A stretch of DNA of 64,000 nucleotides. Source: Candidatus Latescibacterota bacterium (lineage in GTDB: Bacteria; Latescibacterota; UBA2968; GCA-2709665). Shown piece by piece: positions 8,348 to 48,265 of the stretch (position 1 is its first letter; every line of letters starts with the position of its first letter). A program made the position numbers and the translations under genes. The notes under the pieces were generated by a model. It made no database searches. It saw only the letters and a program-made list of their open reading frames with translations, and was not told the DNA's origin. The stretch is from contig OZ252100.1 in the NCBI GenBank assembly GCA_965248435.1, forward strand, positions 3,008,001 to 3,072,000, read 5' to 3'.

Positions 8348-9705
8348 ATGGATCATAAACCGACACGACACATCTTTGCACTCCTGGGCGCGATCGCTCT
8401 GTTCCTTTGGAATCCGGCATCCGCCGAGGAGCGACCACAGGTCGCGAGGACCGCCCGCATGGTCGGACTGGGTGGCTCGCTGACCGGGATCGCGGACGAC
8501 GCCGCTGCGACCTTCTGGAATCCCTCGGGAATTTCCACACTCCAGAGGCAGGAGATCGTCTTTTCCTACGCAGACCGTTATGGACTGGGACTTCAGAACA
8601 GCGAAGTCGGCTACGTCTTTCCGATGTTCGAAACCCACGCCGTGGGCCTCAACTGGACGCGCGAGGGATTCAGCGACGACGAACTCAAAGACGACCTTCA
8701 GGTGTTCAACGTCGCCTACGCCCTCCAGCTGCACCGTTCGATTTCCCTGGGGTTAGGAGGAAAATTCGTCCTCCAGAGCATCGATCTGGACGGCGAGTCG
8801 CTTCGAAGCGCCAGCGGCGACAACACGCAGTTCGAAGAGGAGATCTTCCCGCAGAACCTCCGGGTCGGAACGGCGATCCAACCCCACGAATCGCTCACGA
8901 TCGCACTCGACGTCGACGACCGGATTCACGGAGGACTGGAGTACCAACCCTTGTCTGCGCTGCTGCTGCGGGGCGGCCTACACCGACAGCTGTCTCCCCC
9001 CGACGGCGCTTCCAAGACGTTGAACTACGCCCTCGGATTGGGGGTTCAATGGAACAACATCAAAGTCGACTATGCCTACGACCATCACCCTGTGCTGCCG
9101 GCCACTCACCACGCGTCCGTCTCGATGTCCTACAACCCGTCCCTCGTCACTGTCAAGGACGCGTTGATCCGGCCGTCTCCCGTTTTCAAGTCCCTCTACC
9201 GCACCTATGAGGAGAGTGATTTTGTGGACGTGGTCCTCCGCAACGCCTCCCAGGACGCACTGCCCGTCACGATCAGCATCGACATCCCCACGGTGACGAA
9301 GACGCCGCACGAAGAGAGCGTGACCATTCCCCCACAAAGCACTCAGCGATATGGATTTACGCTCACGTTTCCGAATGACCTTTTGGCCACTCAATCCTCC
9401 TACTACGACAACCTGGTTCAACCCACGGTCAAAGTGACCTACACCAAAGGTCGGAAAAGTAAGACCGCGACGAAACGCATCAGCAGCGTCTACGTCCTGG
9501 GAAAGGGCAAACTCAGCTGGTCCAATCCGGCAAGGATCGGCGCCTTCATTACCAGCGAGAGCCGAACAGTAGACACCTTCGCCCGTGGTGTCGTCGGGAA
9601 CTATATCGACTTGCTTCAGAAGAAGTTTCCACGCAACAACATCGGAAAGGCCGCAGTCGTCTTCGACGCCCTCAGCGCCTACGGGCTCCGATACCAGCAG
9701 GATCG
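8348..9705 (+). pseudogene. 5' half of split PorV-like barrel / transglutaminase-like / TPR protein
   Basis: Signal peptide, PorV/FadL-like start ARMVGLGG..ADDAAATFWNPSG, ending in FDALSAYGLRYQQD. It then runs into unrelated DNA (stop 9742) and continues in frame at 46582. Confidence 0.75.
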
Positions 9706-9913
9706 GGGGGCCAAGCTATACCCACAATTCTCCGGGGCCTAGTTTTTCTTGGCCTATAACTTGATTTTCGGGCGTATTCGCTTAAAATCCTGGGGCGGAG
9801 AGCAACTGGGGATTGCAGTTTCATCTCTTTAAGGGTTGGGCTGATGGCAGCGGTGGGAAACTTAGCTATGATGCTATTCGACAAGCTTTGCATCATAATC
9901 TGGATCATGTGCG

Positions 9914-10054
9914 ATGACTAAACCAACCGCAGGATGGATCAACCGGTGGACGCAACTTTTCAGGAGGAGAACCCGGGCTATCCGCCAGAAGGTGGAGGAT
10001 CTGGAAAACCACACCGTAGGCATTTTCAAACGCGAGCCTCCGGGAAAGGAGTAG
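9914..10054 (+). CDS. Small hypothetical phage-region protein (46 aa)
   Basis: MTKPTAGWINRWTQLFRRR...PGKE*, read by hand. ATGA overlap with an upstream fragment; ends 6 nt before the next gene. Confidence 0.4.
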   Translation: MTKPTAGWINRWTQLFRRRTRAIRQKVEDLENHTVGIFKREPPGKE

Positions 10055-10060
10055 TCAATC

Positions 10061-11020
10061 ATGGGATGGGATGGTAATGGAAACGTAGTTCGTAGGGACG
10101 GCACGAGAACGGGAAGCTCTGTCTTCGAGCTGGCGAGAGAAGCGGATGTCCTTGTTAATGCTCCTGATCACGACACGCACGACAATGAGATTGCCACCGC
10201 CATTGAAAACTGTGTTGCTCGGGATGGACAGAACCAGCCTACCCTTAACCTCCCAATGGGGGGGAAAAAACATACGGGAGTAGGCGATGCTGTCAGCGAG
10301 AGCGATTATGCCGCATACGGGCAGCTTCTCGCTCTCGTGTCTCCGTTTGTGTCCGCTGCAAACATAGGCGGCACCGGCGATGCTGTTACGCTGACTCCGC
10401 CGATCGCGGCGACTTCGTATGTGACTGGCAAGGGCTTTTCGTTCTTCTCCGAGCTTGCGAATACGGGCGCAATAACAGTGACGGTCTCGAACCTTGCGGC
10501 CGTGAGCGTCAAGCGCGCGGACGGAACCGACTTTGACAATGGAGATATCAAAGCGGGGCGGTATGTACGCATTATCTACAATGGTGCGAACTTCCACTCC
10601 AATATCCCGCCTCCAGTTCCGGATGTAACGGATTTCGCTCCCTTCGATTTGGACGAGGATGTCACGAGAGCGATCACCAGCCTGTCCGATGCTGACGGGT
10701 TTGTGGTGGCCGATAAGTCTACGACGGGTTTCCCGAACCGAGTCATCCAGGCGCAGGACATCGCAGACTACATGCAGGTGGAGGTGGATCTGGACGCGGA
10801 CCGGGTAACGGGCGGCACGTTAAATGTGAACCGTATCCCGAATATCCCGGCCAGCAAGACCTCTTCGGGGACGTTCAACGTCCTGCGTATCCCGAACTTG
10901 GCTGCATCCAAGATAACGTCAGGGATTTTCAATGTAAATCGTGTCGCATCCGTGCTCACGCAAACCGCGTACAACGCTCTGACGCCGGACGCGAACACAC
11001 TCTACTTGATAACCGGGTAG
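10061..11020 (+). CDS. Phage tail-fibre-like structural protein
   Basis: N-terminal DNEIATAIENCVARDGQ..LPMGGKKHTGVGD typical of podoviral fibres, three 18-aa ASKxxSGxFNVxRIPN repeats, C-terminal TQTAYNAL..DANTLYLI motif. Confidence 0.7.
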   Translation: MGWDGNGNVVRRDGTRTGSSVFELAREADVLVNAPDHDTHDNEIATAIENCVARDGQNQPTLNLPMGGKKHTGVGDAVSESDYAAYGQLLALVSPFVSAANIGGTGDAVTLTPPIAATSYVTGKGFSFFSELANTGAITVTVSNLAAVSVKRADGTDFDNGDIKAGRYVRIIYNGANFHSNIPPPVPDVTDFAPFDLDEDVTRAITSLSDADGFVVADKSTTGFPNRVIQAQDIADYMQVEVDLDADRVTGGTLNVNRIPNIPASKTSSGTFNVLRIPNLAASKITSGIFNVNRVASVLTQTAYNALTPDANTLYLITG

Positions 11021-11023
11021 TCT

Positions 11024-11303
11024 ATGGCCTGGCGCTTATTTGTATGCGACAACGTTGGTGACGAGCTTTGGGAGTTAGACCCCGATGGTTCAGATACGGA
11101 AGGGACTTTGTTACGTTCTCTACCGAGCGCTCTAACTAGTCCGGAGGGAATGACGGTTTTTGATGGGAATCGTTTGCTTGTATGTGACAACATCGGTGAC
11201 GACCTTTGGGAGTTAGACCCCGATGGTTCAGATACGGAAGGAACGAGGTTGCGCGCCTTGCCGACTGGGGCAGGGTTAGGCAGTGCGAACGGCATGACGG
11301 TTT
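11024..11303 (+). pseudogene. Repeat (propeller-blade-like) phage protein truncated by IS3
   Basis: Two 46-aa/138-bp tandem repeats (RLxVCDNxGDxLWELDPDGSDTEGT..GMTV). The stop codon lies inside the IS end. Confidence 0.55.
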
Positions 11304-11369
11304 TGACCTGACCCCCTGGATTGTTCCCATTCCTAGAGTTAGGATATGGGTAACCAGAAAGGGGTCATT

Positions 11370-11648
11370 ATGGCCAGAAAGCGTTATACCGCAGAGCAGA
11401 TCATCGGGCACCTCCGGCAAGCGGAGATCCTCATCTCCGAGGGCAAGACCATCGGTGAGGCTGCGCGCCATCTCGGCATCAGCGAGCAGACCTACTACCG
11501 TTGGCGCCGTGAATACGGCGGAATGGAAGTCGATCAAGCCCGGCGCCTGAAAGAGCTCGATCAGGAAAACCAACGGTTGAAGAGGCTGGTCGCCGACCAG
11601 GCTCTGGACATCTCGATCCTGAAGGAAGCCTCCCGGGGAAACTTCTAA
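11370..11648 (+). CDS. IS3 transposase OrfA
   Basis: HTH-type MARKRYTAEQII...GISEQTYYRWRREYGG...ENQRLKRLVAD. Confidence 0.9.
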   Translation: MARKRYTAEQIIGHLRQAEILISEGKTIGEAARHLGISEQTYYRWRREYGGMEVDQARRLKELDQENQRLKRLVADQALDISILKEASRGNF

Positions 11649-11689
11649 GCCCGACGCGTCGGCGTCAGACGGTCGGGCACGTCTGTGAG

Positions 11690-12493
11690 GTGCTGACCGT
11701 TTCCGAGCGTCGGGCGTGCCGTGTGCTGGGACAGGTGAGGCGCACCCAGCGATACACGCCCAGGGTGGGAGACGACGAGGAGCTTCTGACCGCGAGCATC
11801 GTCTCTCTGGCCAGCGAATACGGGCGGTATGGCTACCGTAGGATCACGGCCCTGCTCAGGGGTGACGGCTGGCGGGTGAACCACAAGCGGGTGGAGCGGA
11901 TCTGGCGTCAGGAGGGGCTGAAGGTGCCCGCCAGACAGCCGAAGCGCGGTCGGCTGTGGCTCAATGACGGTTCCTGCATCAGGCTCAGACCCGAGCACGG
12001 CAACCACGTTTGGGCTTACGACTTCCTATTCGATCGGACCCAGGAAGGGAGGCCCCTGAAGCTCCTGACGGTGGTCGACGAGTTCACCCGCGAGTGCCTG
12101 GCGATAGAAGTTGCCCGCAAGCAGAGCTCGCGGGACGTTCTACGGATGTTGGCCGGGCTGATGTTGAGGCACGGCATCCCGAAACACATCAGATCGGACA
12201 ACGGGCCCGAGTTCGTGGCCAAAGCCGTCCGGGAGTGGCTCTCGAGGTTGGAGGTCGGGACGTTGTTCATCGAGCCGGGTAGTCCGTGGGAGAACGGCTA
12301 CATCGAAAGCTTCAACGGGAAACTCAGGGATGAACTCCTCAACGGTGAGATCTTCACGACGCTGCAGGAGGCAAAGGTATTGACCGAGGTGTGGCGACGG
12401 CAGTACAATCGGGTCCGCCCACACAGCTCGCTTGGCTATAGGCCGCCGGCGCCTGAAACGGTCTTAGGACCGCTAGTTGCAACCGCATCCTAA
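11690..12493 (+). CDS. IS3 transposase OrfB (rve DDE), probably expressed by -1 frameshift
   Basis: YGYRRI, WAYDF, SDNGPEF and PWENGYIESFNGKLRDE motifs. Confidence 0.92.
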   Translation: MLTVSERRACRVLGQVRRTQRYTPRVGDDEELLTASIVSLASEYGRYGYRRITALLRGDGWRVNHKRVERIWRQEGLKVPARQPKRGRLWLNDGSCIRLRPEHGNHVWAYDFLFDRTQEGRPLKLLTVVDEFTRECLAIEVARKQSSRDVLRMLAGLMLRHGIPKHIRSDNGPEFVAKAVREWLSRLEVGTLFIEPGSPWENGYIESFNGKLRDELLNGEIFTTLQEAKVLTEVWRRQYNRVRPHSSLGYRPPAPETVLGPLVATAS

Positions 12494-12527
12494 CTCTGGA
12501 TGTGGATACATAGGTGGGGGCAGGTCA

Positions 12528-12889
12528 GCGAGCTGGACGACTTCGCCGGACAAACACGTGTAGAGACGGTGGCTTGGATAGATGTAGGTGCGATCCGCGA
12601 CATGAAAATGAAGAATATCCATACCATCGAACAGCTGGCAGGAATGTCCGATGAGGCTATCACTCGGTCGGATATGATCGGGCTGGTAGCTTTGCGCACC
12701 AAAGCGAAAGCGCATATCGCAGACCACCGGAAGTCGTCCGAGTACGATGATATGAAAGCGCAGAACGAGACACTGTCGCAACAGATGGTCCAGATGCAGG
12801 AGCAGATGGCTCAGATGCAAGAGCAGATGACAGCGCAGCCAGAGGGGCAGTCTAAGCGGGGCCCGGGGCGCCCGAGGAAAGCCGAATAA
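12528..12889 (+). pseudogene. Phage virion-region protein, 5'-truncated by IS3
   Basis: NIHTIEQLAGMSD..IGLVALRTKAK and a C-terminal KRGPGRPRK tail resemble small podoviral proteins found upstream of the head-tail adaptor. The listed ORF start lies inside the IS. Confidence 0.6.
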
Positions 12890-12892
12890 TCT

Positions 12893-13259
12893 ATGCCTTC
12901 CACAGAGACAGTACTGACTTTGGCACAGGATGTTGCGGCGTCGATCGGTCTTGAAGTGCCGACATCTCTAAAAAACAATAGAGACCCGACGGCACGGCTG
13001 ATGCTGGTGCTTCTCAATCGCGGCAATCAAGCGCTGGCGTCGAAGCGCGGCCCGTTTGGAGCATCTCGTAGAGCTGGACCTGGAGTGGCGCGTTCGAAAA
13101 GCGCAGGGCTTACAGTACATCGCGGATATTGCAGAGTTCGAGATGGAGCGCGATCGTCTATTTTCGCAAAGCGTGGGACTTCGAGACGTTTACATGTCCC
13201 CTAATTCACAAGACTTCCTTCGTGAGAGCAGTGTTATCCCAGGGTTGGGAGATAGTTAG
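12893..13259 (+). pseudogene. Phage head-tail adaptor (tail tubular A-like) with internal deletion/frameshift
   Basis: N-terminus VLTLAQDVAASIGLEVPT..DPTARLMLVLLNR joins at ~13056 to an out-of-frame C-terminus EHLVELDLEWRVRKAQGLQY. Confidence 0.55.
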
Positions 13260-13327
13260 ATGCCCATAACCATCGGCCTAGATCAAAATATGGTCGAGAC
13301 CCGCTCCGGCTTCGGCTCGGGGCAATG

Positions 13328-13481
13328 CGGATGACGGCGCGATCATGGCCGGTGCTTTTGGACTGTCAAAGCATTTGGTGTGCAATGTTGGCGTGTTCCT
13401 CGAAGCCCGTACTTTGACGTGGTTATCCGGGGACGCTGGCACCGATATAGGTGTAGGCATCGGGCTCTCAACGGCCTTCTA
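13328..13481 (+). pseudogene. C-terminal fragment of a possible outer-membrane beta-barrel protein
   Basis: Hand translation ADDGAIMAGAFGLSKHLVCNVGVFLEART...GVGIGLSTAF*: alternating beta-strand pattern with terminal Phe. Confidence 0.3.
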
Positions 13482-13509
13482 GGGGAAGTAGAGGGAACGC
13501 GGGTCAACC

Positions 13510-14744
13510 CCCCGGTTATGAAGCGTGCCTATCCGTGGGAGGGGAAGTCAGCGCCGTGGCCGACGAGCATCATCTACGACGAAGAGGAAGGCATCTGGAA
13601 GATGTGGTACAATGGCCTGACCCTGGAGGACGTCCCGGTCGAAAGGTTTCTGTACAGGTGTCTCTACGCCACCTCCAAGGATGGCATCAACTGGGACCGG
13701 TCGCCCCTGGGCCTGCACAAGGACGAAGATGGCAACGATACGAACGTCTTCTACTGGGGCAAAGGACAGTATGTGCTCAAGGACAAGGAGGCCGATCCTT
13801 CCAGGCGGTACAAGATGGTCTACTCGACGCGAGGAAAGGCGGGGCTGCAGCACCCGATGGTCCAGCATTCCCCGGACGGGCTTCACTGGACGGAGGACCC
13901 CGGGCCTTTCAGCCACGGACGTGGGGATGAAAATCTCGGCGTGATGTATGACCCGGTGAGCAAGAAGTATGTCGGGATCTGCCGTAACGTCTATCCGAGA
14001 CCCATGCTGGTCCACAGGACGGAACGGTCCATCTATAGGATGCAGAGCAATGACCTGGTTCACTGGTCCACACCCCTGCCCATCATCGACAGGGACGAGC
14101 TGGATCCACTGGATATAGACTTCGAGGGGATGGGAGGGATGTATTATGAGGGCATGTACCTGGGCTTCCTGAGGGTCAGCCACACCGCGCCCAGCACGAT
14201 GGACTGCTGGTTCGCCCACAGCAGAGACGGTTTCCACTGGCAGAGGCCGAGGACCAGACCGTTTTTTACCTGGGGACCGGAGGGGAGCTGGGACTCGAAA
14301 TCGGCGACGATCTCGACCCCGATTCGGGTCGGGGACGAGCTCTGGGTCTACTATTCGGGGTCGAATGGTGAGAAGGAGACAGCCGTCGGATTGGCAAAGC
14401 TGCGGCTGGACGGGTTCGTGTCGATCGATGCCCCTCCCAACACTCGCCACCCGAAGGACAACTCGGCCACACTGATGACGAAGCCCGTGTATTCTCCCGG
14501 CAATCGACTCGTGATCAATGCGGAAGCTTCCAATGGCAGTATCGAGGCGGAGTTGCTGAGCGTGGATGGGTTCGTGATCGATGGTTATTCGAGAGAAGAC
14601 TGCGACAGCTTCAGCGGGGACAGTCTGGCGCATACCGTCACGTGGAAAGGGAAGGCGGATATAGGTGGGTGTATTCCCGCGAGGATTCGTATTTATATGG
14701 AGAAGGCGAAGCTTTACGCATTGCAGATTCCCAAGGGTCAGTAG
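13510..14744 (+). pseudogene. Five-bladed beta-propeller glycoside hydrolase-like protein, paralog A (5'-truncated)
   Basis: Aligns to paralog B only from PVMKRAYPWEG and lacks the ~90-aa N-terminus. WKMWY, DPSRRYKM, SRDGFHW and LRLDGFVS motifs. Confidence 0.75.
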
Positions 14745-14760
14745 AGAAGACGTGAGTATC

Positions 14761-14840
14761 CGGGTACCGGGGAATCAAAACACGGGTACCGGGAAGACAA
14801 AACACGGGGGAACCGGAAATCGCAAAGGCCAGGTACTGGG
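14761..14840 (+). repeat. CGGGTAC/AAAACAC heptamer repeat tract upstream of four-helix-bundle gene 1
   Basis: cgggtaccgggg..aaaacacgggtaccggg..aaaacacggg..aggtactggg. Confidence 0.8.
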
Positions 14841-14852
14841 ATGATGGGAAAT

Positions 14853-15236
14853 ATGAAAGTGAGTAGCTATAGAGACCTGGATGTATGGAACAAGGGCATC
14901 GAAATCGTGGATTACGTGTATGAGGTTACGTCTCAGTTTCCAAAGGAAGAAACGTATGGTTTAGCCGCGCACATGCAAAAAACGGCAATATCCATACCCT
15001 CGAACATCGCCGAAGGTCATGCTCGACAGCATACCAGAGAGTACCAGCAGTTCTGTCATATCGCGCTGGGTTCGTGTGCCGAATTGGTGACGCAGTTGAC
15101 TATCGCAGAGCGACGAAGCTATGTGTCTGACGAAGATTTCGCGAAATTGGAAGACGAGTTGGACCACGAAACTCGAATGCTCCAGAGCTCGATTGGGAGT
15201 CTAAAGGAGAAATCGAGCAAAGAATCTAAATCTTGA
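14853..15236 (+). CDS. Four-helix-bundle protein (23S rRNA-IVP/TIGR02436-like), copy 1
   Basis: SYRDLDVW...FPKEETYGL..AISIPSNIAEG..IALGSCAEL.TQL signature. Confidence 0.92.
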   Translation: MKVSSYRDLDVWNKGIEIVDYVYEVTSQFPKEETYGLAAHMQKTAISIPSNIAEGHARQHTREYQQFCHIALGSCAELVTQLTIAERRSYVSDEDFAKLEDELDHETRMLQSSIGSLKEKSSKESKS

Positions 15237-15257
15237 GATCAGGAGAGATTGTTCGGC

Positions 15258-15286
15258 CCCCCGGTACCCGGTACCCGAGGTCGGGT
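15258..15286 (-). repeat. Inverted (GTACCCG) repeats plus ACCCGA-TCGGGT hairpin
   Basis: ccggtacccggtacccgaggtcgggt is the reverse complement of the upstream tract unit. Confidence 0.8.
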
Positions 15287-15326
15287 AACAGGTCGCGCGA
15301 TTTCGCTGATAAGGAGATGTGAAGCT

Positions 15327-16826
15327 ATGAGGCTCGAAATCCCTGGTTCAGAACTGATCGTGAACGTCGGGACTCAAAAGCAGCTGTTCATAGATGACTA
15401 TATCATCGAGCGGTCGCGGTGGATCACGCCCCGACTCGCCGAGACGGCGCGCTATATCCAGCCCCCTGCCCGGGACCGGAGCGATCTGGACGGCTGGACG
15501 GAGGGGGTGGATCGGATCTCGGGAGACGTCCCGGGTCACCTGATCCGGGCGACCAGCTTCGTGACGCGGACCCTGAATCAGCCGGAGCGGTTCGAGGGCA
15601 ACCCGGTTATGAAGCGTGCCTATCCGTGGGAAGGGGAGTCTGCGCCGTGGCCGACCAGTATCCTTTACGACGAAGAGGAAGGCATCTGGAAGATGTGGTA
15701 CAACGGTCTGACCACAGAGGACGTTCCGAAGCGGGCGTGGCATTATCGGTGTCTCTACGCCACGTCCCCGGACGGCGTTGCCTGGGACCGGTCGCCCCTG
15801 GGGCTGCACAAGGACGAAGAGGGCAACGATACGAACGTCTTCTACTGGGGAAAAGGGCAGTATATCTTCAAGGACAAAGAGGCCGATCCTTCCAGACGGT
15901 ACAAGATGGTCTACTCCACGCGCAGCAAAGCCGGGCTGCAGCACCCGATGGTCCAGCATTCCCCCGACGGCCTTCACTGGACAGAGGACCCCGGACCTTT
16001 CAGCCACGGCCGGGGAGATGAAAACCTCGGGGTGATGTATGACCCCGTAAGTAGGAAGTATGTCGGGATCTGCCGAAACGTCTATCCGAAACCGGTCCTG
16101 GTCCACAGGACGGAACGGTCCATCTATAGGATGCAGAGCAATGACCTGGTTCACTGGTCCACACCCCTGCCCATCATCGACAGGGACGAGCTGGATCCGA
16201 TGGATATGGACTTCGAGGGGATGGGTGGGATGTTCTATGAGAACATGTACCTGGGCTTTCTGAGGGTCAGCCACACCGCATCTACCACGATGGACTCGTG
16301 GTTTGCCCACAGCAGGGACGGTTTCCACTGGCAGAGGCCAAGGACCCGCCCCTTTCTGCCCAGGGGACCGGAGGGGAGCTGGGACCCGGAATCGGTGACG
16401 ATCTCACAGCCTCCGATACAAGTCGGCGATGAACTCTGGGTGTTCTATGCCGGGGGGGGTGGCCAGGGTTCGGCCGTCGGACTGGCCAAGCTGCGCCTGG
16501 ACGGGTTCGTGTCGATCGATGCCTTCGATCGCACGGCGAAAAACAGAGCGCCCACGCTGATGACAAAACCGATCTATTCTCCCGGCAATCGTCTGGTCGT
16601 GAACGCGGACGCCTCTGCAGGGTTCATCGACGCGGAGTTGTTGAACGTGGATGGATATGTGATGGATGGATTTTCCAGAGAAGACTGCGACACCTTTCAG
16701 GGGGACAGCCGTGAGCATACCTTCAGCTGGAAGGGAAATTCCGATATCGGAGGATGCATGCCGGCAAGAATCCGATTCACGATGAAGAGCGCGAAGCTTT
16801 ATGCGCTGCAGGTTCCCAAGGCGTAA
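15327..16826 (+). CDS. Beta-propeller glycoside hydrolase-like protein, paralog B (GH32/43/130-type fold)
   Basis: AAGGAG RBS, KQLFIDD start, propeller motifs, conserved C-terminal domain LRLDGFVS..GNRLVVNA..KLYALQ. No signal peptide. Confidence 0.8.
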   Translation: MRLEIPGSELIVNVGTQKQLFIDDYIIERSRWITPRLAETARYIQPPARDRSDLDGWTEGVDRISGDVPGHLIRATSFVTRTLNQPERFEGNPVMKRAYPWEGESAPWPTSILYDEEEGIWKMWYNGLTTEDVPKRAWHYRCLYATSPDGVAWDRSPLGLHKDEEGNDTNVFYWGKGQYIFKDKEADPSRRYKMVYSTRSKAGLQHPMVQHSPDGLHWTEDPGPFSHGRGDENLGVMYDPVSRKYVGICRNVYPKPVLVHRTERSIYRMQSNDLVHWSTPLPIIDRDELDPMDMDFEGMGGMFYENMYLGFLRVSHTASTTMDSWFAHSRDGFHWQRPRTRPFLPRGPEGSWDPESVTISQPPIQVGDELWVFYAGGGGQGSAVGLAKLRLDGFVSIDAFDRTAKNRAPTLMTKPIYSPGNRLVVNADASAGFIDAELLNVDGYVMDGFSREDCDTFQGDSREHTFSWKGNSDIGGCMPARIRFTMKSAKLYALQVPKA

Positions 16827-16830
16827 AGAC

Positions 16831-39560: not shown

Positions 39561-39563
39561 GGG

Positions 39564-39927: not shown

Positions 39928-39966
39928 AGAAGATACTCTGGTTCTGTTAGCAAGGAGGATATAGCT

Positions 39967-40224
39967 ATGAGGCTACAGGTTCCGGGTTCGGAGCTGATCG
40001 TGAACATCGGCACTCGCAAGCAGCTGTTTGTGGATGACCACATCATCGAGACGACGCGATGGGTGTCGCCCCGGCTTTCCGAGACGGCCCGATGGGTCCA
40101 GCCTCCTGCTCGTCCTCGTGCGGACCTCGATGGATGGAGCGAAGGGGTCGACCGGATCGAGGGAGACGTGCCTGGACACCTGCTGAGGGCGACCGCGTTC
40201 GTGACCCGGACCGTGAATCAGCCT
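39967..40224 (+). pseudogene. Glycoside hydrolase-like paralog E, N-terminal 86 aa only
   Basis: Closely matches the N-termini of C and D up to TVNQP, then fuses to a transposase. Confidence 0.85.
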
Positions 40225-40655: not shown

Positions 40656-40739
40656 ATGTGAGCACACACCCGGGATGAGGGCGATTCCGGCACGAAGTTG
40701 CCCTCGACAAGGAAGCAGAGAGAGAAGAATAGGGAGAGC

Positions 40740-42239
40740 ATGGCTCAATACGACGCGATCGTGGTCGGCGGAGGCCATAACGGACTCGTGGCTGCCAATT
40801 ACTTCGCCAGAGCGGGCATGTCTGTCCTGGTATTGGAACGCCGCGACTTCGTTGGTGGGGCATGCATTACAGAAGAACTGTTCCCCGGTTTCCGCGTATC
40901 CAGCTGCTCGTATATCTGCTATCTGCTACAAGAGAAGGTTATCGAGGACCTGGAACTCAGGAAGCACGGCTTCGAGGTGCATACCCTCACGCCGTATCGC
41001 TTCCACCCCTTTCCGAACGGAGAGTATCTGCTGCACTGGCACGACGATGCCGGGACGGCCGACGAGATCCGCCGCATCTCGCCCCGTGATGCTGAAAGGT
41101 ATCCCGAATGGGTCGCTTTCTGGGAGCGAGCGGCCGGCATTCTCAAACGGTATTTTCTAGGCACACCAGATGAGCGGGTCTTCGAGCGGATGCTGACGGG
41201 AAACATGAAGGACCTCGTCGAGGAATACTTCGAGTCCGATCTCGTGCGTGCGAGCTACATCGATGCTCAGGATGCCGGCGATGTGATCGCACCTGGCAGC
41301 GTCATGGCAGTTGCCTATTACAAGGTCGCTATACTGAGCGAGGAGAAGAACGTAGGAATACCCTATGGCGGCATGGGCGGTATCACGCAGGCGATGGCTC
41401 GGTCTGCTGAAGCGAGGGGCGTTGACATTCGGACCGGCGCAGAGATCCAGCGCATTGTGATTCACAACGGGCGTGCCGGCGGCGTTGTTCTGAACAACGG
41501 TGAGGAGATCGGCGCCAGCGTGGTGGTCTCGAACGCCGACCCGAAGCGAACGTTTCTCGGACTCGTAGACCCTGCGGAACTCGAACCCGAGTTCGTGGAG
41601 AAGATCAAACGACTGAAGAACGGAGTGACCTATCTCAAGTTCCACTGCGCGCTGAAGGAACTGCCCGATTTCTCAGCCCATCTGGGCAAAGACTTCGATC
41701 CACACTACCTGGCGCAGGCGCGCATATGTCCTTCGGTCGAGTATCACGAACAGAGCTGGGATGATGCCAGACGAGGTCTTCCGTCGAGTTGTCCCGTCAT
41801 GTCGATTCAGATCCCGTCCGTGTACGAGCACAGCCTGACCCCTCCCGGGCAGCACGTTATGTCCGTATGGGTGCTCTACGCGCCGCCACAGCTTCGAGAT
41901 GGATCGTGGGATGATGCGAACAGGCGAGTCGGAGAACACCTGATTGACACGATCAATGAATACGCGCCAAACTTTCGGGATGCGATCATCGACTGGAAGC
42001 TTTTCACGCCTCCAGATCTCGAACGCAGGGTGTATCTGACGAACGGGAGCATCCGTCATACGGACATCACGATCGATCAAATGCTGTCCAAGCGATTCGA
42101 TGGCGGAGAATCGGGCTACAGCACGCCGGTGAAGGGTCTCTATCTGTGCGGGGCTGGAACGCACCCCGGGGGAGAGGTCACCGGGGCACCGGGACATAAC
42201 GCGGCGGAGGCTATTCTGAGGCTCGAATCGTGTTCGTAG
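40740..42239 (+). CDS. Phytoene desaturase-like FAD-dependent oxidoreductase (PYROXD2-like)
   Basis: YDAIVVGGGHNGLVAA, GGMGGIT and LYLCGAGTHPGGEVTGAPGHNAA. Possible short in-frame deletion at ~41160. Confidence 0.88.
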   Translation: MAQYDAIVVGGGHNGLVAANYFARAGMSVLVLERRDFVGGACITEELFPGFRVSSCSYICYLLQEKVIEDLELRKHGFEVHTLTPYRFHPFPNGEYLLHWHDDAGTADEIRRISPRDAERYPEWVAFWERAAGILKRYFLGTPDERVFERMLTGNMKDLVEEYFESDLVRASYIDAQDAGDVIAPGSVMAVAYYKVAILSEEKNVGIPYGGMGGITQAMARSAEARGVDIRTGAEIQRIVIHNGRAGGVVLNNGEEIGASVVVSNADPKRTFLGLVDPAELEPEFVEKIKRLKNGVTYLKFHCALKELPDFSAHLGKDFDPHYLAQARICPSVEYHEQSWDDARRGLPSSCPVMSIQIPSVYEHSLTPPGQHVMSVWVLYAPPQLRDGSWDDANRRVGEHLIDTINEYAPNFRDAIIDWKLFTPPDLERRVYLTNGSIRHTDITIDQMLSKRFDGGESGYSTPVKGLYLCGAGTHPGGEVTGAPGHNAAEAILRLESCS

Positions 42240-42256
42240 AAAAGGACCTGAGTTTT

Positions 42257-42293
42257 TGGGTACCGGGAAGGCAAAACACGGGTGCCGGGGACC
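42257..42293 (+). repeat. Solo CGGGTAC-type tract
   Basis: gggtaccgggaaggcaaaacacggg is identical to 39566-39590. Confidence 0.75.
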
Positions 42294-42495
42294 GTAAGAC
42301 GGTGTTGCTTAGAGAAACGAACCAAATATTCCTGTTGACATCCCGCGGTTTTTAGGTTCTTTTTTTGCAGAAATTGTAGATTTTTCTGCACCCTAGACGA
42401 TTTAGCCAAACCGGACTTGAGTGAACCTTGACATCGCGTGAAACAAAGGGATCGTGTTCTTCTACTCGCCGGGAAGACCAGAAGGAGGAGTTGTG

Positions 42496-44148
42496 GTGAG
42501 AAGATTCCTTCTTACGCGTTGCTTTGTGATGAGTGTGGTGGGACTGGGTTGCTTTGCGTGCGGCAAAGACCAATCTCTCTCGCCCGGAATCGAGCGAGCA
42601 GGGGGCCTTGGAAAGCCCGCTGTTAAGGCAGCTGTGAACCATCGTTTGGTTGTGACTGTAACGGTGATTCAGGCCGGTGAGCCGGCATCGGGCGTGGAAG
42701 TTGCGTTCTCTCGCTCCATCTCCGGTCGAGCAGCCGACTACAGGTGGCAGGGCACAACGGACGAGAATGGCGAGGTGGAGATCGAGATTACGGCTGATCC
42801 GACGGGACAGTTCGGGCGGGTGGGGACGACCGGCTATTATCTCGCGATGGCCACCGAAACTGCAAGCGAAGAGGTCTTGGAGAAATGGGGCAGTATCCCG
42901 ATCAACGATGGAGAGACGGCAGAACTGATTCTGGAGGTCGGGAGGCGAGCCTTCTTTAGACAGGATTTGAGAGGCAGGTTCGATCTTCGGACGCTTGGTC
43001 CCATTCCTTATCCTTCGGACAACGCATACGATCCGCAAAGAATCGCTCTGGGAAAGCTGCTCTTCTACGACCCGATCCTGGGGGGAGAGAAAGACGTTGC
43101 TTGCGGGACCTGTCATTTACCGGGATCTGCCTTTGCCGATGGTCGTCAATTCGGTGCAGGCGTGAGTGGTGTAGGCCTGGGTAAAGACCGTGAGCTTTCT
43201 AACCTATCTATCTCCGGCGATGAAATCCTGCTCGAGCCCAGGAATACGATGACGATTTATAACACGGCGTTTAATGCAGACGAGGGTGGCCTTCCTTCCG
43301 CCTTCGGGTTTTTTGCTGTGGATGGTAAAGCCAGGGGGCTGGAGGAGCTGGTTACGATTCCCATCGCTAATCGGGTCGAAATGCGGGGAGATGCCTACTC
43401 CGAGGAGGCTGCCCTGGATAGTGTGGTTGCAAGGCTTCGAACGGTTCCCGAATACGTTCAGCTTTTCCAGGAGGCCTTCCCGGCAGAGGCGATGCAAACC
43501 GGGGGAACGGCCGTCATCGACGGTTCCACATACAGTCGGGCGCTAGCGGCCTATGCGCGAGAATTGGTCACGCGAGACTCACCCTACGATCGCTATGTAA
43601 AAGGTAGTGATGGCGCGCTAAGCGACGAACAGAAATTGGGCCTGGAGTTGTTCTTCACCAGGGCCAAGTGTTCCGTCTGTCACAACGGACCGATGTTGAG
43701 CGACTACCGGTTCATCCGTCAAGGGGTGCCCCAGGTAGGTGAGGGAAAAAGCTCGGGGGACGACAGGGGTCGGGAAGAATTTACCGGAAACCCTCTAGAC
43801 CGGTATAAATTCCGCACGCTGACGATTCGGAATGTTGAGCTGACCGCGCCCTACATGCACGACGGTTTTTTCGAAACGCTCGAGGAAGTCGTCCGATTTT
43901 ATAACGATGGCGCTCGGCCACGACATCCTGTGGTGGTAGATGATGTGCTGGAGCCCATTCTGATCGAGCCTCTGGGCTTGACCGATGAGGAGATAGACGC
44001 CATCGTCGAGTTCATGAAGGCGTTGACCGATCCGGGAACGGCCCTGGATCCCTTCCTCGTGACCGTTCCGGACGAGGTCCCCAGCGGACTCACCCCGCTC
44101 ATTGGGGTGAGTGCGGTAGGAAAAATCGCTTCGGGGCCTGGAAGATAG
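42496..44148 (+). CDS. Di-heme cytochrome c peroxidase/MauG-family lipoprotein
   Basis: GGAGG RBS, lipobox CFAC, LGKLLFYDP.L, CGTCH and CSVCH heme sites, RNVELTAPYMHDG. Confidence 0.9.
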   Translation: MRRFLLTRCFVMSVVGLGCFACGKDQSLSPGIERAGGLGKPAVKAAVNHRLVVTVTVIQAGEPASGVEVAFSRSISGRAADYRWQGTTDENGEVEIEITADPTGQFGRVGTTGYYLAMATETASEEVLEKWGSIPINDGETAELILEVGRRAFFRQDLRGRFDLRTLGPIPYPSDNAYDPQRIALGKLLFYDPILGGEKDVACGTCHLPGSAFADGRQFGAGVSGVGLGKDRELSNLSISGDEILLEPRNTMTIYNTAFNADEGGLPSAFGFFAVDGKARGLEELVTIPIANRVEMRGDAYSEEAALDSVVARLRTVPEYVQLFQEAFPAEAMQTGGTAVIDGSTYSRALAAYARELVTRDSPYDRYVKGSDGALSDEQKLGLELFFTRAKCSVCHNGPMLSDYRFIRQGVPQVGEGKSSGDDRGREEFTGNPLDRYKFRTLTIRNVELTAPYMHDGFFETLEEVVRFYNDGARPRHPVVVDDVLEPILIEPLGLTDEEIDAIVEFMKALTDPGTALDPFLVTVPDEVPSGLTPLIGVSAVGKIASGPGR

Positions 44149-44177
44149 CGTTCTCTCTCCGATCGCAAGAAATCGAA

Positions 44178-44207
44178 AGGGCCTGCACCCTTATAGGTGC
44201 AGGCCCT
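44178..44207. terminator. Terminator-like hairpin
   Basis: AGGGCCTGCACC / GGTGCAGGCCCT 12-bp stem. Confidence 0.6.
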
Positions 44208-44280
44208 GAATATTTGTAGTCGGCGTTGACCGATCAGGGATCAGATCTCGATCCCTTCCTTCTGACCATTCCGGATGAGG

Positions 44281-45011
44281 ATCTGTCGCCGGAGCAGCAG
44301 ATGTTCTTGAGCCAAACACCGGGAGCCTTGAAGTTCTTTGAATCGAGGACGAAGCAGCCCGACCCGCAACCCGATCGGCGTATCGTGACGGGCCCCGACA
44401 AGCTCCAGTATTATACTGACACACAGGAGCGCGTGTTGCCGGGCGTAGAGGCTCCTGCACCAATGGAAATGGACGCAACGCCCGATATAAAGGGCGAGTC
44501 GGGACTACGAAAAGAATACAACGATCTGTCCAAAGATTTTAAGAAGGTAAAATCCGCCTTTAGCCGGATCAAGGCCGCCAGCGATAGTGCAGCGGGCGAC
44601 ATCGCATTGATCTTCAACTACATGAAAATGTTGGATCCTGGATCGGTCGTGAGGGAATCCGAGTACGCGACCGCCGCAAATGCCGCAGGTGTGCCAGATC
44701 GGATACGGGTCTTCTACAACAAGTTGGTGGCAGGCGAGAAGCTGTCGCCTGCCCAACGGAGTATGTTCAAGGCCGAAGCGGAACTCCAATATTCTTCTGC
44801 CACAGGACAGCAGGGTGAGCGCGAAGCCTATTTTTCTTCGCTGGCCACAGACTATGGCTTCGCCCCTTCGCGCATTGTTCGCAATCTCACCGGCGCGAAC
44901 TTTGCGGCGATGACGCAAGAGCAACATTTGGCTAGGGCGCAGACTCTTACGCCGGAACAACGCGCGCAAGCGGCCGACGAGTGGGACCGTTTGTTTGGGG
45001 GAAAACAGTAA
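44281..45011 (+). pseudogene. Phage ejection/internal virion protein, 5'-truncated
   Basis: LRKEY..AAGDIALIFNYMKMLDPGSVVRESEYATA motif typical of podoviral DNA-transfer proteins. Fused to a peroxidase-gene fragment at 44222-44280. Confidence 0.65.
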
Positions 45012-45014
45012 AAT

Positions 45015-46590
45015 ATGCCAAATCCTTATCGGCAATCGACCGGACAGGCCTCGAGACCACAGAATCCCTACCGGGTATCCACCCCGGGGGTAGTCCAGGA
45101 TGAGCCTCAAGGGCCCATACAGGCCGTTTTAGGGGGCATTTCGGAGATGGTGAGCAATATCCCCGGGTTCAACCGCACAGTTCGCTAGCGACGTTACAGC
45201 GCCTATTCACAGTCCCGTGCAGACGTTGACGGGGTTGAGAGACATAGCTGTGGGGCTGACCTGACCCCCTGGATTGTGCCCAGTTCTATAGTTAGAATTG
45301 GGTCATTAGAAAGGGGTCACCATGGCCAGAAAGCGTTATTCCGCGGAGCAGATCATCGGACACCTCCGGCAAGCGGAGATCCTGATCTCCGAGGGCAAGA
45401 CCATCGGTGAGGCTGCCCGCCATGTCGGCATCAGCGAGCAGACCTACTACCGTTGGCGCCGTGAATACGGCGGAATGGAAGTTGATCAAGCCCGGCGCCT
45501 GAAAGAGCTCGATCAGGAAAACCAACGGTTGAAGAGGCTGGTCGCCGACCAGGCTCTGGACATCTCGATCCTGAAGGAAGCCTCCCGGGGAAACTTCTAA
45601 GCCCGACGCGTCGGCGTCAGACGGTCGGGCACGTCTGTGAGGTGCTGACTGTTTCCGAGCGTCGGGCGTGCCGTGTGCTGGGACAGGTGAGGCGCACCCA
45701 GCGATACACGCCCAGGGTGGGAGACGACGAGGAGCTTCTGACCACGAGCATCGTCTCTCTGGCCAGCGAATACGGGCGGTATGGATACCGTAGGATCACG
45801 GCCCTGCTCAGGGGTGACGGCTGGCGGGTGAATCACAAGCGGGTGGAGCGAATCTGGCGTCAGGAGGGGCTGAAGGTGCCCGCCAGACAGCCGAAGCGAG
45901 GTCGGCTGTGGCTCAATGACGGTTCCTGCATCAGGCTCAGACCCGAGCACGGCAACCACGTTTGGGCTTACGACTTCCTATTCGATCGGACCCAGGAAGG
46001 GAGGCCCCTGAAGCTCCTGACGGTGGTCGACGAGTTCACCCGCGAGTGCCTGGCGATAGAAGTTGCCCGCAAGCAGAGTTCGCGGGACGTTCTACGGATG
46101 TTGGCCGGGCTGATGTTGAGGCACGGCATCCCGAAACACATCAGATCGGACAACGGGCCCGAGTTCGTGGCTAAAGCCGTCCGGGAGTGGCTCTCGAGGT
46201 TGGAGGTCGGGACGTTGTTCATCGAGCCGGGTAGTCCGTGGGAGAACGGCTACATCGAAAGCTTCAACGGAAAACTCAGGGATGAACTCCTCAACGGTGA
46301 GATCTTCACGACGCTGCAGGAGGCAAAGGTGTTGACCGAGGTGTGGCGACGGCAGTACAATAGGGTCCGCCCACACAGCTCGCTGGGCTATAGGCCGCCG
46401 GCGCCTGAAACGGTCTCAGGACCGCTAGTTGCAACCGCATCCTAACTCTGGATGTGGATACATAGGTGGGGGCAGGTCAGGGCTGGCCCACAAGATAATA
46501 CCTGGCGAACAGGGCAAGGAAAAATACGCTGATGCCATTGGGAATTTCCTAGTAGAGCGCTACGGAAGTATCGACAACATTCAGCGCACC
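45015..46590 (+). pseudogene. Second phage virion/ejection gene, frameshifted, IS3-interrupted and truncated
   Basis: MPNPYRQ...NIPG, frameshift ~45165, STAQFASDVTAPIHSPVQTLTGLRDIAVG|IS|LAHKIIPGEQGKEKYADAIGNFLVERYGSIDNIQRT. Confidence 0.6.
45257..46479 (+). mobile_element. IS3-family insertion sequence, copy 2 (orfA 45322-45600, orfB 45642-46445)
   Basis: Near-identical to copy 1, with a 4-bp target duplication GGGC. Confidence 0.95.
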
Positions 46591-48265
46591 ATATTTGCAA
46601 ATCTTCGAAGACGACTCTGTGTTCGATACCGTAAAGTATCCATATGAGTTTCTCGAGTCGAAAATCGGAGACTGTGACGACTGCACGGCACTCTACTCCG
46701 CCATGCTCGAAAACCTGAACATCCCCACGGCGATCCTGGACGTCAACGACCCACAATTCGGTCACATCTACATGATGTTCGACAGCGGGATTCCCATTTC
46801 GGATGCCGGCGACTTCTTCGTCCACGAGAAGGAGTACGTCATCTGGGAGGGAAGCCTCTGGATTCCGGTGGAAACGACCCTCTTTGGTTCTTCATTTACC
46901 GATGCCTGGCGTAACGGGGCGGAAGAGTACTACGTTCGGAAAGAACGTGGATTCATCAACGAGATTCTCGTATCGCAGGCCCAGCAGGTCTTCAAACCTG
47001 GCGTCGTTCCGGACGCGGATGTCGCTCTACCCTCGGCAACGGCGATCGACGAAATCTTCAACCGCGACCTTGCCTTCTTCGAAAACCGCCTGGACCAGAT
47101 CGCACTCGCCTCGGGTGTTTCCCTTGAAAGTGCCGAAGGCCTTTACGACGTCGGCGCGACCTATCTTCGGCTCGGTCAGTTCGATCGCGCCCTGGATTCG
47201 TTCGACAGGGCGATCCAGAAGGATCCCCGCATGTCCGATGCCTATAACGCAAAGGGGGTCATCCTCACGCGCCGAAGGCAATATGACGAAGCCATCCAGT
47301 TCTATCAAAAGGCCCTGGGCCTGAATCCGAGCGATGCGGGCTACCAGATCAACATCGCCCTCACCTATCACCTCCAGGGAAAGCGGGATGACGCCCAGCA
47401 GGTCTACCAGGAGGCGGTTGAGGTGAACCGAGACTTCGCGGGGATGTTCGATTTTCTCACGAGAAAAGACGCACCCGCGATCTCCGTTCCGGCGGCCGTG
47501 GACCCATTGCAGAAGCTTGCTGCCCAGAAGGCCTACGATGACGGCGCGGCCTATCTCCGCCTCAAGTCCTTTGAAAAGGCCATCGACGCGTTCGACCGGG
47601 CCGTGGCACTCGATCCCAACAGCGCAGATGCCTACAACGCCAAAGGCGTCATCTCGACACGTGAAAGAAAATACAGCGAGGCCATCGGTCTTTACCAGAA
47701 GGCCACTCAGCTGGATCCAAATAACGCCGGATTTCACGTCAACCTGGCGATCGCCTATCATCTGCTGGGCAAAGGCGATGAGGCCTTGCGCGAATACCGT
47801 CGCACCGTCGAACTCGATCCGGACTACCGGGGACAGCTCGACTTTATCGCAGGTGGAGAAACGCTCGCGGCTCCCGAGACACCCGCGGCCACCTCGAGCA
47901 TCGCCACACCCCTCCAGCGTCTGGCCGCCGAGAAGGCCTATGACGATGGCGCTGCCTACCTCAGGCTGAACGCCCTGGACAAAGCACTCGATGCGTTGGA
48001 CCGAGCGCTGGCACTCGATCCGAAAAACGCGGATGCGATGAACGCAAAGGGCGTGATCCTCACCCGCGAGCGGAACTACGGCGATGCCATTCAACTGTTC
48101 AAGAGCGCAACCGAGCTTGATCCTTCAGATGCCGGTTTCCACATCAACCTGTCTATCGCTTACCACCTGCAAGGGAATCGCGAAGACGCCCTCCGAGAAT
48201 ACCGCAAGGCCATCGAGCTCGACGCGGATTATGCGGGACAGCTCGACTTTTTGGAACAGGAGTAA
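46582..48265 (+). pseudogene. 3' half of split gene: transglutaminase-like domain plus three TPR blocks
   Basis: SAPYLQIFEDD..DTVKYP..GDCDDC..GHIY..WIPVETT followed by TPRs. No RBS or native start. Confidence 0.8.

Follow-up and report, generated by a model that had tools for sequence, protein, structure and literature searches.

Bacterial gene gain is usually ascribed to integrases, transposases, or homologous recombination, and clean natural cases in which large pieces of DNA entered independently of homology are scarce. The prophages that split genes such as comK, sigK, mlrA, and hlb (“active lysogeny”) carry an integrase and have an att core, of at least the crossover dinucleotide, at both joints. 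Illegitimate integration may follow other routes, such as Ku/LigD end joining or the gyrase-type recombination that forms lambda transducing phages, and the events obtained in the laboratory mostly involve short segments and often cost the recipient some of its own DNA. Decayed cryptic prophages are known as landing pads for IS elements and islands.

Here we describe a gene of a marine Latescibacterota-like bacterium that is split by an insert of 36,876 nt (give or take 3 nt), located at positions 9706 to 46581 of the window, i.e., the whole stretch of 64,000 nt that was analyzed. Like the gene-splitting prophages, this is a phage-derived block that cuts a conserved ORF cleanly, its ends are adjacent on the phage map, and its exact removal could restore the gene; unlike them, it has no integrase and no in-frame core, and 90% of the block is not phage. 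With illegitimate integration it shares little or no homology at the joints, the lack of a target duplication and of a dedicated recombinase, and the presence of end-joining genes in the genome. However, it is much unlike the laboratory events, with 36.9 kb gained and at most 2 nt of host DNA lost, and the evidence is purely comparative. Nested ISs, an IS-associated deletion, truncated structural genes, and a lost control region are traits of decayed cryptic prophages, from which the locus differs by an interior of 30.8 kb of paralogous host metabolic genes that are connected through sharp, non-IS joints. In print, we found no natural entry of a large block independently of homology for Latescibacterota, a little-known phylum.

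Anatomy of the interrupted gene

The features of the locus, in window coordinates, are as follows.

8348..9704, plus strand: N half of the split host gene, with signal peptide and PorV/PorQ-type barrel-like part, matching residues 1-452 of full-length homologues
9655..9666, no strand: left arm of a perfect inverted repeat (12 nt) flanking the insertion point; right arm, 46607-46618
9706..11303, plus strand: left phage-like end, with small ORFs, a tail-fiber-like gene (10061-11020), and an NHL-repeat-like ORF (11024-11303) cut by an IS3
11304..12527, plus strand: IS3-family element, left copy (IS3-L), with HTH_Tnp_1 and rve/rve_3 ORFs, without target duplication, flanks TTT and GCG
12528..13510, plus strand: single-copy stretch, possibly phage, with a decayed 103-aa ORF and a coiled-coil ORF whose open frame extends 5' into the IS
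13511..44280, plus strand: host-like cargo, 30.8 kb of carbohydrate-utilization genes with nested ISs; first gene 5'-truncated
25641..27346, minus strand: IS1380-like element (DDE_Tnp_1_4, Pfam 1e-157), nested in the cargo
36650..37780 (approximate), plus strand: IS630-like remnant, HTH_32 and DDE_3 in two frames
40650..44280, plus strand: amine-oxidase/peroxidase segment, a recent duplicate, 98.4-98.9% identical to C1:3885998-3889670, with one 42-nt indel
44281..45256, plus strand: right phage-like part, with the 3' part (to 45011) of a gene for an ejection or “DNA transfer”-type virion protein, a 57-aa ORF, and the first part of a small ORF
45257..46479, plus strand: IS3-family element, right copy (IS3-R), a simple insertion flanked by a duplicated 4-bp target, GGGC (45253-45256 and 46480-46483)
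46484..46581, plus strand: terminal 98 nt of the insert, in which the small phage ORF continues before reading out across the junction
46583..48265, plus strand: downstream half (C half) of the host gene, encoding a transglutaminase-like core and TPR repeats, collinear with homologues from the residue after the Gln codon

The comparison by tblastn with the loci of four relatives identified the ORFs at 8348-9703 and 46583-48265 as the two halves of one gene, a conserved outer-membrane/TPR gene. In all four, which keep the flanking gene order, the N half ends (residue 452, window 9703) and the C half starts (46583) in the same frame, with exactly one codon between them. The same held for all of 15 loci drawn from genome and metagenome collections, several of which represent organisms already included, and for genome G004: the two parts adjoin in frame and are separated by a single codon, which is Gln (CAG or CAA) in all homologues. 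Since these many relatives fix the ancestral state within one codon, the joint can be read exactly. Thus, the preliminary description was right that the insertion splits a host gene, and the full-length genes intact at 15/15 loci mean that the halves are not separate genes. The continuous ORF of 1013 aa that it gave on rejoining was also reproduced by a scripted rejoin, without internal stop, at each of the four possible cut positions. In contrast, the Arg that it placed at the junction is probably not the original residue, given the Gln of all homologues and the metagenome contigs that stop matching at 9704 and not at 9705.

As it stands, the N-half ORF reads into the insert up to a stop at 9740-9742 and gains a tail of 12 residues. 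The Pfam scan found no family in the N half, and “PorV/PorQ family protein” is the name given by the source to one homologue that was found with the C half. In the latter, the Pfam matches to Transglut_core and DUF553 were weak and those to TPR strong.

Junctions

No direct 8-mer is common to the two junction regions, where only TC stands before both joints, i.e., the common sequence is at most 2 nt, and there is no target duplication. This agrees with the direct repeats having been described as absent. Likewise, we found no repeat of at least 7 nt at the junctions suited to a tyrosine integrase and no terminal inverted repeats at the insert ends, the sequences of which do not occur elsewhere in the genome. 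An empty site of the same species was searched for and not recovered; a host loss of 0 nt and one of 2 nt both fit, and the loss is in any case at most 2 nt. With this little homology and host loss, and without duplication, the joint appears to be of the illegitimate type. The earlier proposal of an illegitimate or microhomology-driven integration fits in all testable points as far as an integrase-independent, homology-poor joint is concerned, but “microhomology-driven” is too strong for at most 2 nt in common. The reading of the right junction in two frames is real but trivial, as the 84-codon insert frame merely continues into host DNA.

The 12-nt inverted repeat around the insertion point was picked out post hoc. 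A repeat of at least 12 nt appeared in 1 of 2,000 shuffles, 0.10% of the genome lies within the spacer of such a repeat, and at this site the homologues have either no such repeat or one of at most 8 nt. When rebuilt, the site had no unusual fold (z = −1.24).

In a six-frame search for integrase families, PF00589 had 16 matches and PF00239 had 3 genome-wide, none of them within the window, and Pfam scans of the insert ORFs retrieved only IS transposases and no recombinase, in accordance with the insertion having been reported to lack an integrase. However, with most of the phage DNA lost, an integrase (and an att site) could have been lost or blurred too, and its absence now does not mean absence at entry. 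On its present sequence, the locus would fall outside the class of integrase-mediated prophages and islands, as recombinase, att core, and a recognizable gene set are all absent. The genome does encode Ku (159.6 bits), adjoined by a LigD-type ligase with LigD_N, DNA_ligase_A_M, and DNA_ligase_A_C matches and a phosphoesterase domain. The pair is a capacity for end joining, not proof of its use.

Phage-like ends

Podovirus-like DNA is left at the two ends: the left one has a tail-fiber gene, and the right one an ejection-protein gene truncated at its 5' end. The block had been called phage-bounded, which is correct for both ends, but the phage share is only about 3.7 of the 36.9 kb. The tail-fiber-like gene matched Phage_tail_C (Pfam, 6.5e-8) and the virion structural protein phrog_13989 (5.8e-13) and has relatives on viral contigs, while the adjacent ORF at 11024-11303 had an NHL match of 0.003 (Pfam). 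The GC content of this end is 0.543, versus 0.608 in the left flank. Beyond IS3-L, the stretch 12528..13510 gave only a weak match to phrog_20268 (4.8e-4), no Pfam family, and no second copy in the genome. The ejection-protein gene is the clearest phage component (phrog_13634 at 5e-39). Its relatives are encoded on 141 of 151 candidate viral stretches, although none is close (best identity, 53%), and it was absent from the 52 other genomes of the order. It also matched ejection or virion proteins in records of Mx8 and P22-like phages, with 37 to 50% identity over about half of the query.

In the viral contig L048, the ejection homologue (2725-3864) is upstream of the tail-fiber homologue (6008-6898) on the same strand, and the annotated order in Caudoviricetes sp. 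MW202867.1 is structural protein, transglycosylase, and tail fiber. The order of the end genes in the insert agrees with such a circular phage map, as in P22/Mx8-like podoviruses (ejection proteins, then tail fiber), the contiguity of the two ends in the phage being drawn from the gene order of a single viral contig among 80 and of one annotated record. L048 has a 639-aa gene between the two homologues that finds no counterpart here. Across the hypothetical circular joint, the 84-codon frame stops 17 codons into the left end, as it would by chance. Judging by this gene order and the matches above, the end fragments appear to come from a P22/Mx8-like podovirus. Unlike those phages, though, the insert gave no Pfam or phrog match to coat, portal, terminase, lysis, or early genes, and in no practical sense is it a prophage.

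Insertion sequences and host-like cargo

Members of the IS3 family have OrfA and OrfB in two frames, TG...CA inverted ends, and target duplications of 3 to 5 bp. Two 1,224-nt elements of the insert conform to this description, with HTH and rve ORFs and ends TGACCTG...CAGGTCA, and are 97.5% identical to each other. They are located 1,598 nt inside the left end (IS3-L) and 102 nt inside the right end (IS3-R). Removal of IS3-R and one GGGC copy makes the interrupted frame continuous. IS3-L marks an internal deletion or rearrangement, and an 89-nt scrap at C1:5333844-5333932 reveals that the ORF it cuts originally continued differently. The IS1380-like element is 99.6 to 99.9% identical to two other copies in the genome, and further IS fragments are found in the insert interior.

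The cargo includes four copies or fragments of 23S_rRNA_IVP genes, each of them with a GH32/BNR-like gene of about 500 aa (Pfam, and an Atlas lead for the 500-aa family). Other genes code for URO-D, a GH42-like protein, Spondin_N, a 1058-aa TonB-receptor-like protein, a 789-aa protein, a PorV-like protein, an amine oxidase, and a di-heme peroxidase. They are paralogous, with identities of 67 to 98%, to two regions of the same chromosome (C1:3.886-3.920 Mb and 3.6695-3.672 Mb); the 789-aa protein, for example, has 67% identity with its paralogue in this genome and 69% with that of a congener. The amine-oxidase/peroxidase segment has sharp joints on both sides, the right one truncating the phage ejection-protein gene. 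Being near-identical to the organism's own locus but with different flanks, it resembles a local duplication inserted into pre-existing DNA. The joints at 13510/13511, 40649/40650, and 44280/44281 are equally sharp and without IS ends.

Origin of the insert

The reading that we favor, tentatively and as the likeliest among several, is that podovirus DNA was joined by illegitimate recombination, without integrase or transposase, into a break in codon 453, leaving a dead prophage that was then remodeled. The break would have occurred inside this codon of the porV-like/transglutaminase/TPR gene, possibly favored by the inverted repeat bracketing the site. The phage DNA may have been a circle opened between the ejection-protein and tail-fiber genes or a circularly permuted linear genome ending there, joined by the host Ku-LigD or by another homology-independent cut-and-join. 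The outcome would be a joint like the one observed, with no target duplication, at most 2 nt in common, and at most 2 nt of host sequence lost. The dead prophage would then have been reworked in place, with one IS3 copy associated with an internal deletion or rearrangement, a second copy entering cleanly with its GGGC duplication, and other ISs and host-like blocks patched in via sharp joints, including the amine-oxidase/peroxidase copy (98.7% identical). Of this account, the exact split, the anatomy, the missing att core, target duplication, and integrase, the Ku and LigD genes, and the nested IS events are seen directly, whereas we infer how the DNA was joined, that the phage was circular or permuted, and in what order the steps took place. 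A 20-kb collinear cargo block, 67 to 78% identical to the native locus, speaks against this scenario, as it had no obvious route into a resident prophage. If the scenario is true, an organism with Ku and LigD can acquire tens of kilobases at an arbitrary site, including a spare polysaccharide-utilization locus, and a dead prophage can afterwards gather further DNA patched into it.

A less probable but still serious possibility is ordinary lysogeny followed by decay, with the tyrosine or serine integrase of a temperate podovirus acting at a secondary or gene-internal attB and the integrase, along with the remaining lysogeny genes and most late genes, later deleted and replaced. The clean break and insert ends that are adjacent on the phage map, as in any prophage, would be expected, and the large internal losses are documented by IS3-L, without target duplication, and by the truncated ejection gene. 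The crossover core of serine integrases is a dinucleotide, the size of the TC directly before both joints. However, by our reasoning on the codons, with TC as the core the rebuilt attB would leave 1 nt between GAT and AGC and put the C half out of frame, so that an independent 2-nt deletion beside the joint would be needed. No other core, of two nucleotides or longer, would fit both joints and leave a multiple of three bases between GAT and AGC, and a tyrosine integrase would lack its repeat of at least 7 nt. Neither was an integrase remnant found in any frame, and 0 of 14 scanned ORFs of L048, including those between and just after the ejection and tail-fiber genes, matched an integrase family. 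Somewhat more doubtful is the arrival of the whole block in one piece, as a donor mosaic of ca. 34 to 37 kb (transducing or aberrantly excised) that was circularized or captured directly by end joining at the break. The 36,876 nt are near the genome sizes known for related podoviruses, namely 34.5 kb for one record and 38.7 and 41 kb for viral contigs, and the TonB-receptor-like cargo block has no close counterpart in the genome (67% aa) or the congener (69%), as would be expected of foreign DNA. The insertion may also be young, because the near-identical metagenome sequence of the N half departs exactly at the joint. On the other hand, 40650-44280 is a copy of the organism's own locus that truncates a phage gene already there, nested IS copies are practically identical (99.6 to 99.9%) to others in the genome, and a scrap of the NHL-like ORF of the insert is found at another genomic position, all of which point to remodeling in place. 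The more specific version, a capsid-sized (about 37 kb) linear phage/bacterial mosaic, in effect the load of a transducing particle, captured whole by Ku-LigD at a double-strand break that the hairpin-prone inverted repeat provoked and delivering a second carbohydrate-utilization locus without recombinase or homology, seems improbable to us.

Transposition, either of a Mu-like phage or of an IS3-bounded composite transposon or translocatable unit, is close to refuted. There are indeed two direct IS3 copies near the ends and several DDE transposase genes inside. Mu makes a target-site duplication of 5 bp and has its phage DDE transposase near one end, but here no duplication surrounds the insert or the IS3 pair, whose outer flanks are TTT (left) and GGGC (right). 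The IS copies lie inside the outer ends, which have neither terminal inverted repeats nor another occurrence in the genome, and the rve matches belong only to the two IS3 copies. The least credible explanation is that the junctions are chimeric joins of the assembly. The contamination estimate of the genome is 7%, the right junction is only 102 nt from a repeated IS, and the read-type support covers the left junction. There, however, a 3,719-nt Logan contig from the source-like run X21, in which the query stretch is complete, covers 7377-11095 and crosses the junction with 0 differences; a second Logan contig covers 12499-13547. Besides, the chromosome is a single 5.66-Mb contig, and the two joints complement each other exactly inside a single codon, as those of a misjoin would not.

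The locus also marks strain-level variation in the marine population. Contigs from seawater metagenomes, X1/X2 (235 nt) and X3 (9,754 nt), whose N-half sequence is near-identical to the window, match it up to 9704 and then diverge, continuing with unlike sequence for 75 nt in X1/X2 and for 9,540 nt in X3.

A single host gene, contiguous in relatives

The open reading frame at 8348-9742 (464 amino acids, the N half plus a tail read from the insert) and the frame ending at 48265 are the halves of one gene. In tblastn searches with residues 1 to 452 (window 8348-9703) and the 560 residues from 46583 against loci of four related genomes, the two halves matched in one frame in all four relatives, separated by exactly one codon. 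Same-frame contiguity with one codon between the halves was also found in 15 of 15 loci obtained by scanning metagenomes for a pattern and by scanning a genome collection, a set in which several entries are the same organisms repeated, and at the junction of the copy in the related genome G004, where the 5' part of the gene is missing. The preliminary description had proposed a host gene split by an insertion and rejoinable into a continuous frame of 1013 amino acids, and both claims hold: intact relatives carry the two halves as one gene, and at all four possible cut positions, a scripted rejoining gave 1013 residues uninterrupted by a stop.

Upstream of the gene lie two FG-GAP repeat genes; downstream come a TPR gene, a CHASE2 cyclase, and two more genes. 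All four relatives keep this order. The upstream pair (window 2684-8345), directly adjacent to the split gene and also conserved in relatives, consists of 20 or more FG-GAP/VCBS-like repeats whose 55-nt cores are highly similar. In other lineages, the gene is damaged. The G004 locus (L007) retains only the last ca. 67 residues of the N half, preceded by stops and fused to the C half, while in G038, another related genome, the gene (loci L011 and L110) has a TAG codon within its N part and is frameshifted in its C part, L110 being still contiguous at the junction. From these versions, the gene seems dispensable or prone to decay.

Phage-like ends and internal structure of the insert

The insert measures 36,876 nt (window 9706-46581, ±3 nt). 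Self-comparison together with Pfam and PHROG scans gave the following map.

Features of the insert (window coordinates)
9706-11303, small ORFs, a tail-fibre-like gene, and an NHL-like ORF (Phage_tail_C, phrog_13989)
11304-12527, IS3-family element, left copy (IS3-L)
12528-13510, single-copy DNA of unassigned origin
13511-44280, host-like genes (cargo)
25641-27346, IS1380-like element nested in the cargo
44281-45256, 3' part of a gene for a virion protein of the ejection or "DNA transfer" type, with small ORFs (phrog_13634, 5e-39)
45257-46479, second IS3 copy (IS3-R), 97.5% identical to IS3-L
46484-46581, last 98 nt of phage-like DNA

Phage-like DNA is therefore present at both ends, as had been described from the sequence, and the insert is no working prophage. 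Relatives of the ejection protein occur in Myxococcus phage Mx8, P22-like phages, and 141 viral stretches, and in none of 52 other genomes of the order. The small end ORFs gave nothing significant by tblastn against the viral contig loci and two phage-record loci. Within the genome, the phage-like parts have no second copy beyond one 89-nt scrap, around which Pfam detected no phage genes. In the viral contig L048, a gene for 639 amino acids comes after the ejection homologue and the tail-fibre homologue comes next, all on one strand, and the annotated Caudoviricetes phage MW202867.1 has the same gene order. Since the end genes of the insert are arranged in this phage map order, the insert looks like a phage genome, circular or permuted linear, that was opened between its ejection and tail-fibre genes.

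The cargo (30.8 kb) contains, several times over, a 23S_rRNA_IVP gene paired with a gene of ca. 500 amino acids for a GH32/BNR-like protein, the latter being an atlas lead only. Its other genes encode URO-D, GH42-like, Spondin_N, TonB-receptor-like, and PorV-like proteins, a 789-aa partner, an amine oxidase, and a di-haem peroxidase, and an IS630-like remnant and two further transposase fragments are nested among them. The block is paralogous to the host chromosome contig (C1) at 3.886-3.920 Mb and 3.6695-3.672 Mb, with 67 to 91% identity. One segment of 3.6 kb (40650-44280) is 98.4 to 98.9% identical to its native counterpart in the same genome; its joints are sharp on both sides, and the right one truncates the phage gene. 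A shortened copy of the di-haem peroxidase gene (homology at 21833-22166 and 22629-22814), interrupted by a DDE_Tnp_1_6 transposase fragment, lies at 21814-22638 and 22037-22597.

Both IS3 copies lie inside the insert and not at its outer ends, and IS copies in the insert are 99.6 to 99.9% identical to copies elsewhere in the genome. IS3-R is a simple insertion with a GGGC duplication within a small phage ORF. IS3-L has no target duplication, and the 89-nt scrap (C1:5333844-5333932, 96.6% identical) shows that the ORF that it cuts once continued with other sequence; IS3-L therefore marks an internal deletion or rearrangement. Recombination between IS3 copies was rejected as the source of the missing duplication because the third full copy (C1:5355722-5356945) has flanks that are not complementary to those beside IS3-L.

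Junctions and recombinases

At the left joint, ...CAGCAGGATCG meets GGGGGCC..., and at the right joint, ...GACAACATT meets CAGCGCACC... No direct 8-mer is common to both junction regions, in agreement with the earlier reading that no target was duplicated. The insert has no terminal inverted repeats, and its end sequences do not recur in the genome. Directly before the joints, the only shared bases are TC. Serine-integrase cores are dinucleotides; with all positions tried, no shared core of ≥2 nt gives a spacing divisible by three between the conserved codons GAT (Asp) and AGC (Ser). Lacking a frame-compatible core, a conservative site-specific exchange would not restore the frame, barring a second mutation. 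At the junction, all homologues have a Gln codon, CAG or CAA. An ancestral Gln codon in this species would mean that the joint cost the host two bases, and an ancestral CTC that it cost none.

A six-frame search of the genome gave 16 Phage_integrase and 3 Resolvase matches, none of them inside the window, and Pfam found only IS transposases and no recombinase among the open frames of the insert, so the reported absence of an integrase stands. Target duplication is known for Mu, and IS3 duplications have a known size range. Defining features of the integrase, Mu, and composite-transposon classes were tested and were absent, which places the insert outside all three.

On either side of the insertion point, the host gene carries the arms of a perfect 12-nt inverted repeat (9655-9666 and 46607-46618), found post hoc; in the intact gene, the spacer between them is 64 nt. 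The repeat appeared in 1 of 2,000 shuffles, such spacers make up only 0.10% of the genome, and it is absent from the homologues. This repeat is possibly a fragile site. A hairpin at the target was discarded, the fold of the rebuilt site being not significant (z = -1.24) and only the exact 12-nt repeat being unusual.

Metagenomic contigs at the junction

The left-junction stretch is held completely by four runs of "organism A." A Logan contig of 3,719 nt from one of these runs spans 7377-11095 with 0 differences, so the left joint is found outside the submitted assembly as well; a second Logan contig spans 12499-13547. In seawater, a 235-nt contig (runs X1 and X2, probably one data set filed twice) matches 9545-9704 with 0 differences and continues with 75 nt unlike the window, and a 9,754-nt contig (run X3) shows 5 differences over its match to 9491-9704 and extends a further 9,540 nt. 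In all three runs, 9873-11198 had no or almost no cover, and the uncovered part was not counted as evidence. Judged from these matches up to 9704, an uninterrupted allele in the sea would fit the data. The Arg previously placed at the junction is unlikely, as the three contigs leave the window at 9704, one base short of the G that an Arg codon requires.

An exact 22-mer of the N-half end had no match in metagenome_contigs. A degenerate pattern across the intact junction hit five loci, all homologues of ca. 70% identity from other species, and the C-half protein search recovered no conspecific protein (best identity, 73%).

Origin of the insertion

With no core, no duplication, and no recombinase, an illegitimate joint is the most economical reading. 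The genome has an end-joining system, as a Ku gene adjoins a LigD-type gene with 3'-phosphoesterase and ATP-dependent ligase domains (L098, C1:4143272-4146817). Circular or permuted linear phage DNA would have been opened between the ejection-protein and tail-fibre genes and joined into the host gene in this way, and much of the mosaic would have been assembled in place after the arrival of the phage, as suggested by the further sharp inner joints, the near-identical genomic IS copies, and the local duplicate truncating a phage gene.

The main rival, an integrase that was later lost, is unlikely though to be taken seriously; it is weakened by the reading-frame argument and by the failure to find any integrase remnant. 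That a capsid-sized mosaic arrived in one piece is a lesser possibility: in length, the insert is comparable to the genomes of related phages, and neither this genome nor its congener holds anything closely related to the large cargo block, but the local near-identical duplicate and the IS copies argue against it. Transposition, including a composite transposon, fails on both the element ends and the duplication and is very improbable. An assembly artefact is likewise very improbable, with a contig bridging the left joint and the two joints complementary to the exact codon.

In its workings, the insert is comparable to known illegitimate integrations and to decayed prophages that collect IS elements. 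From a phylum of which little is known, it would be a well-resolved natural case of a large insertion that lacks an integrase and carries a spare carbohydrate-utilization locus. The literature, in which Hulter and Wackernagel (2008) is cited, provided background only, with no published description of this locus found.

Repeated and flexible DNA elsewhere in the genome

The IVP gene pair consists of a 23S_rRNA_IVP protein (PF05635, bAvd-like four-helix bundle) of 120 to 131 amino acids followed by the ca. 500-aa gene, which has no Pfam family and is closest in the atlas to GH32-N-terminal-like or BNR-like clusters. Four copies or fragments lie in the window (13380-16826, 34282-36555, 37785-39560, and 39846-40223) and at least 10 elsewhere, including C1:3.725-3.729, 3.836-3.840, 3.899-3.905, and 3.913-3.917 Mb, with 68 to 91% DNA identity. 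Just 3' of cargo genes, the window has eight copies (14755, 14777, 17272, 24970, 36281, 36303, 39559, and 42251) of a ca. 51-nt repeat based on GGGTACCGGG...AAAACACGGGTACCGGG, which may be an intergenic repeat or an element resembling a terminator or REP.

The second contig of the assembly (C2, 17,156 nt) is unrelated to the insert at an E value of ≤1e-20; it encodes a 1297-aa repeat protein whose frame is still open where the contig ends, and one stretch of C2 matches the transposase fragment at window 40225-40454 with 70% identity. The chromosomal region around the 89-nt scrap of the NHL-like ORF (L116/L117, C1:5.316-5.356 Mb) is flexible and IS rich, with IS3-family and IS1380-like copies and fragments, a 2073-aa Big_12/Calx-beta protein, an acetyltransferase-family ORF, and sigma-factor fusions, one of them with ankyrin repeats.
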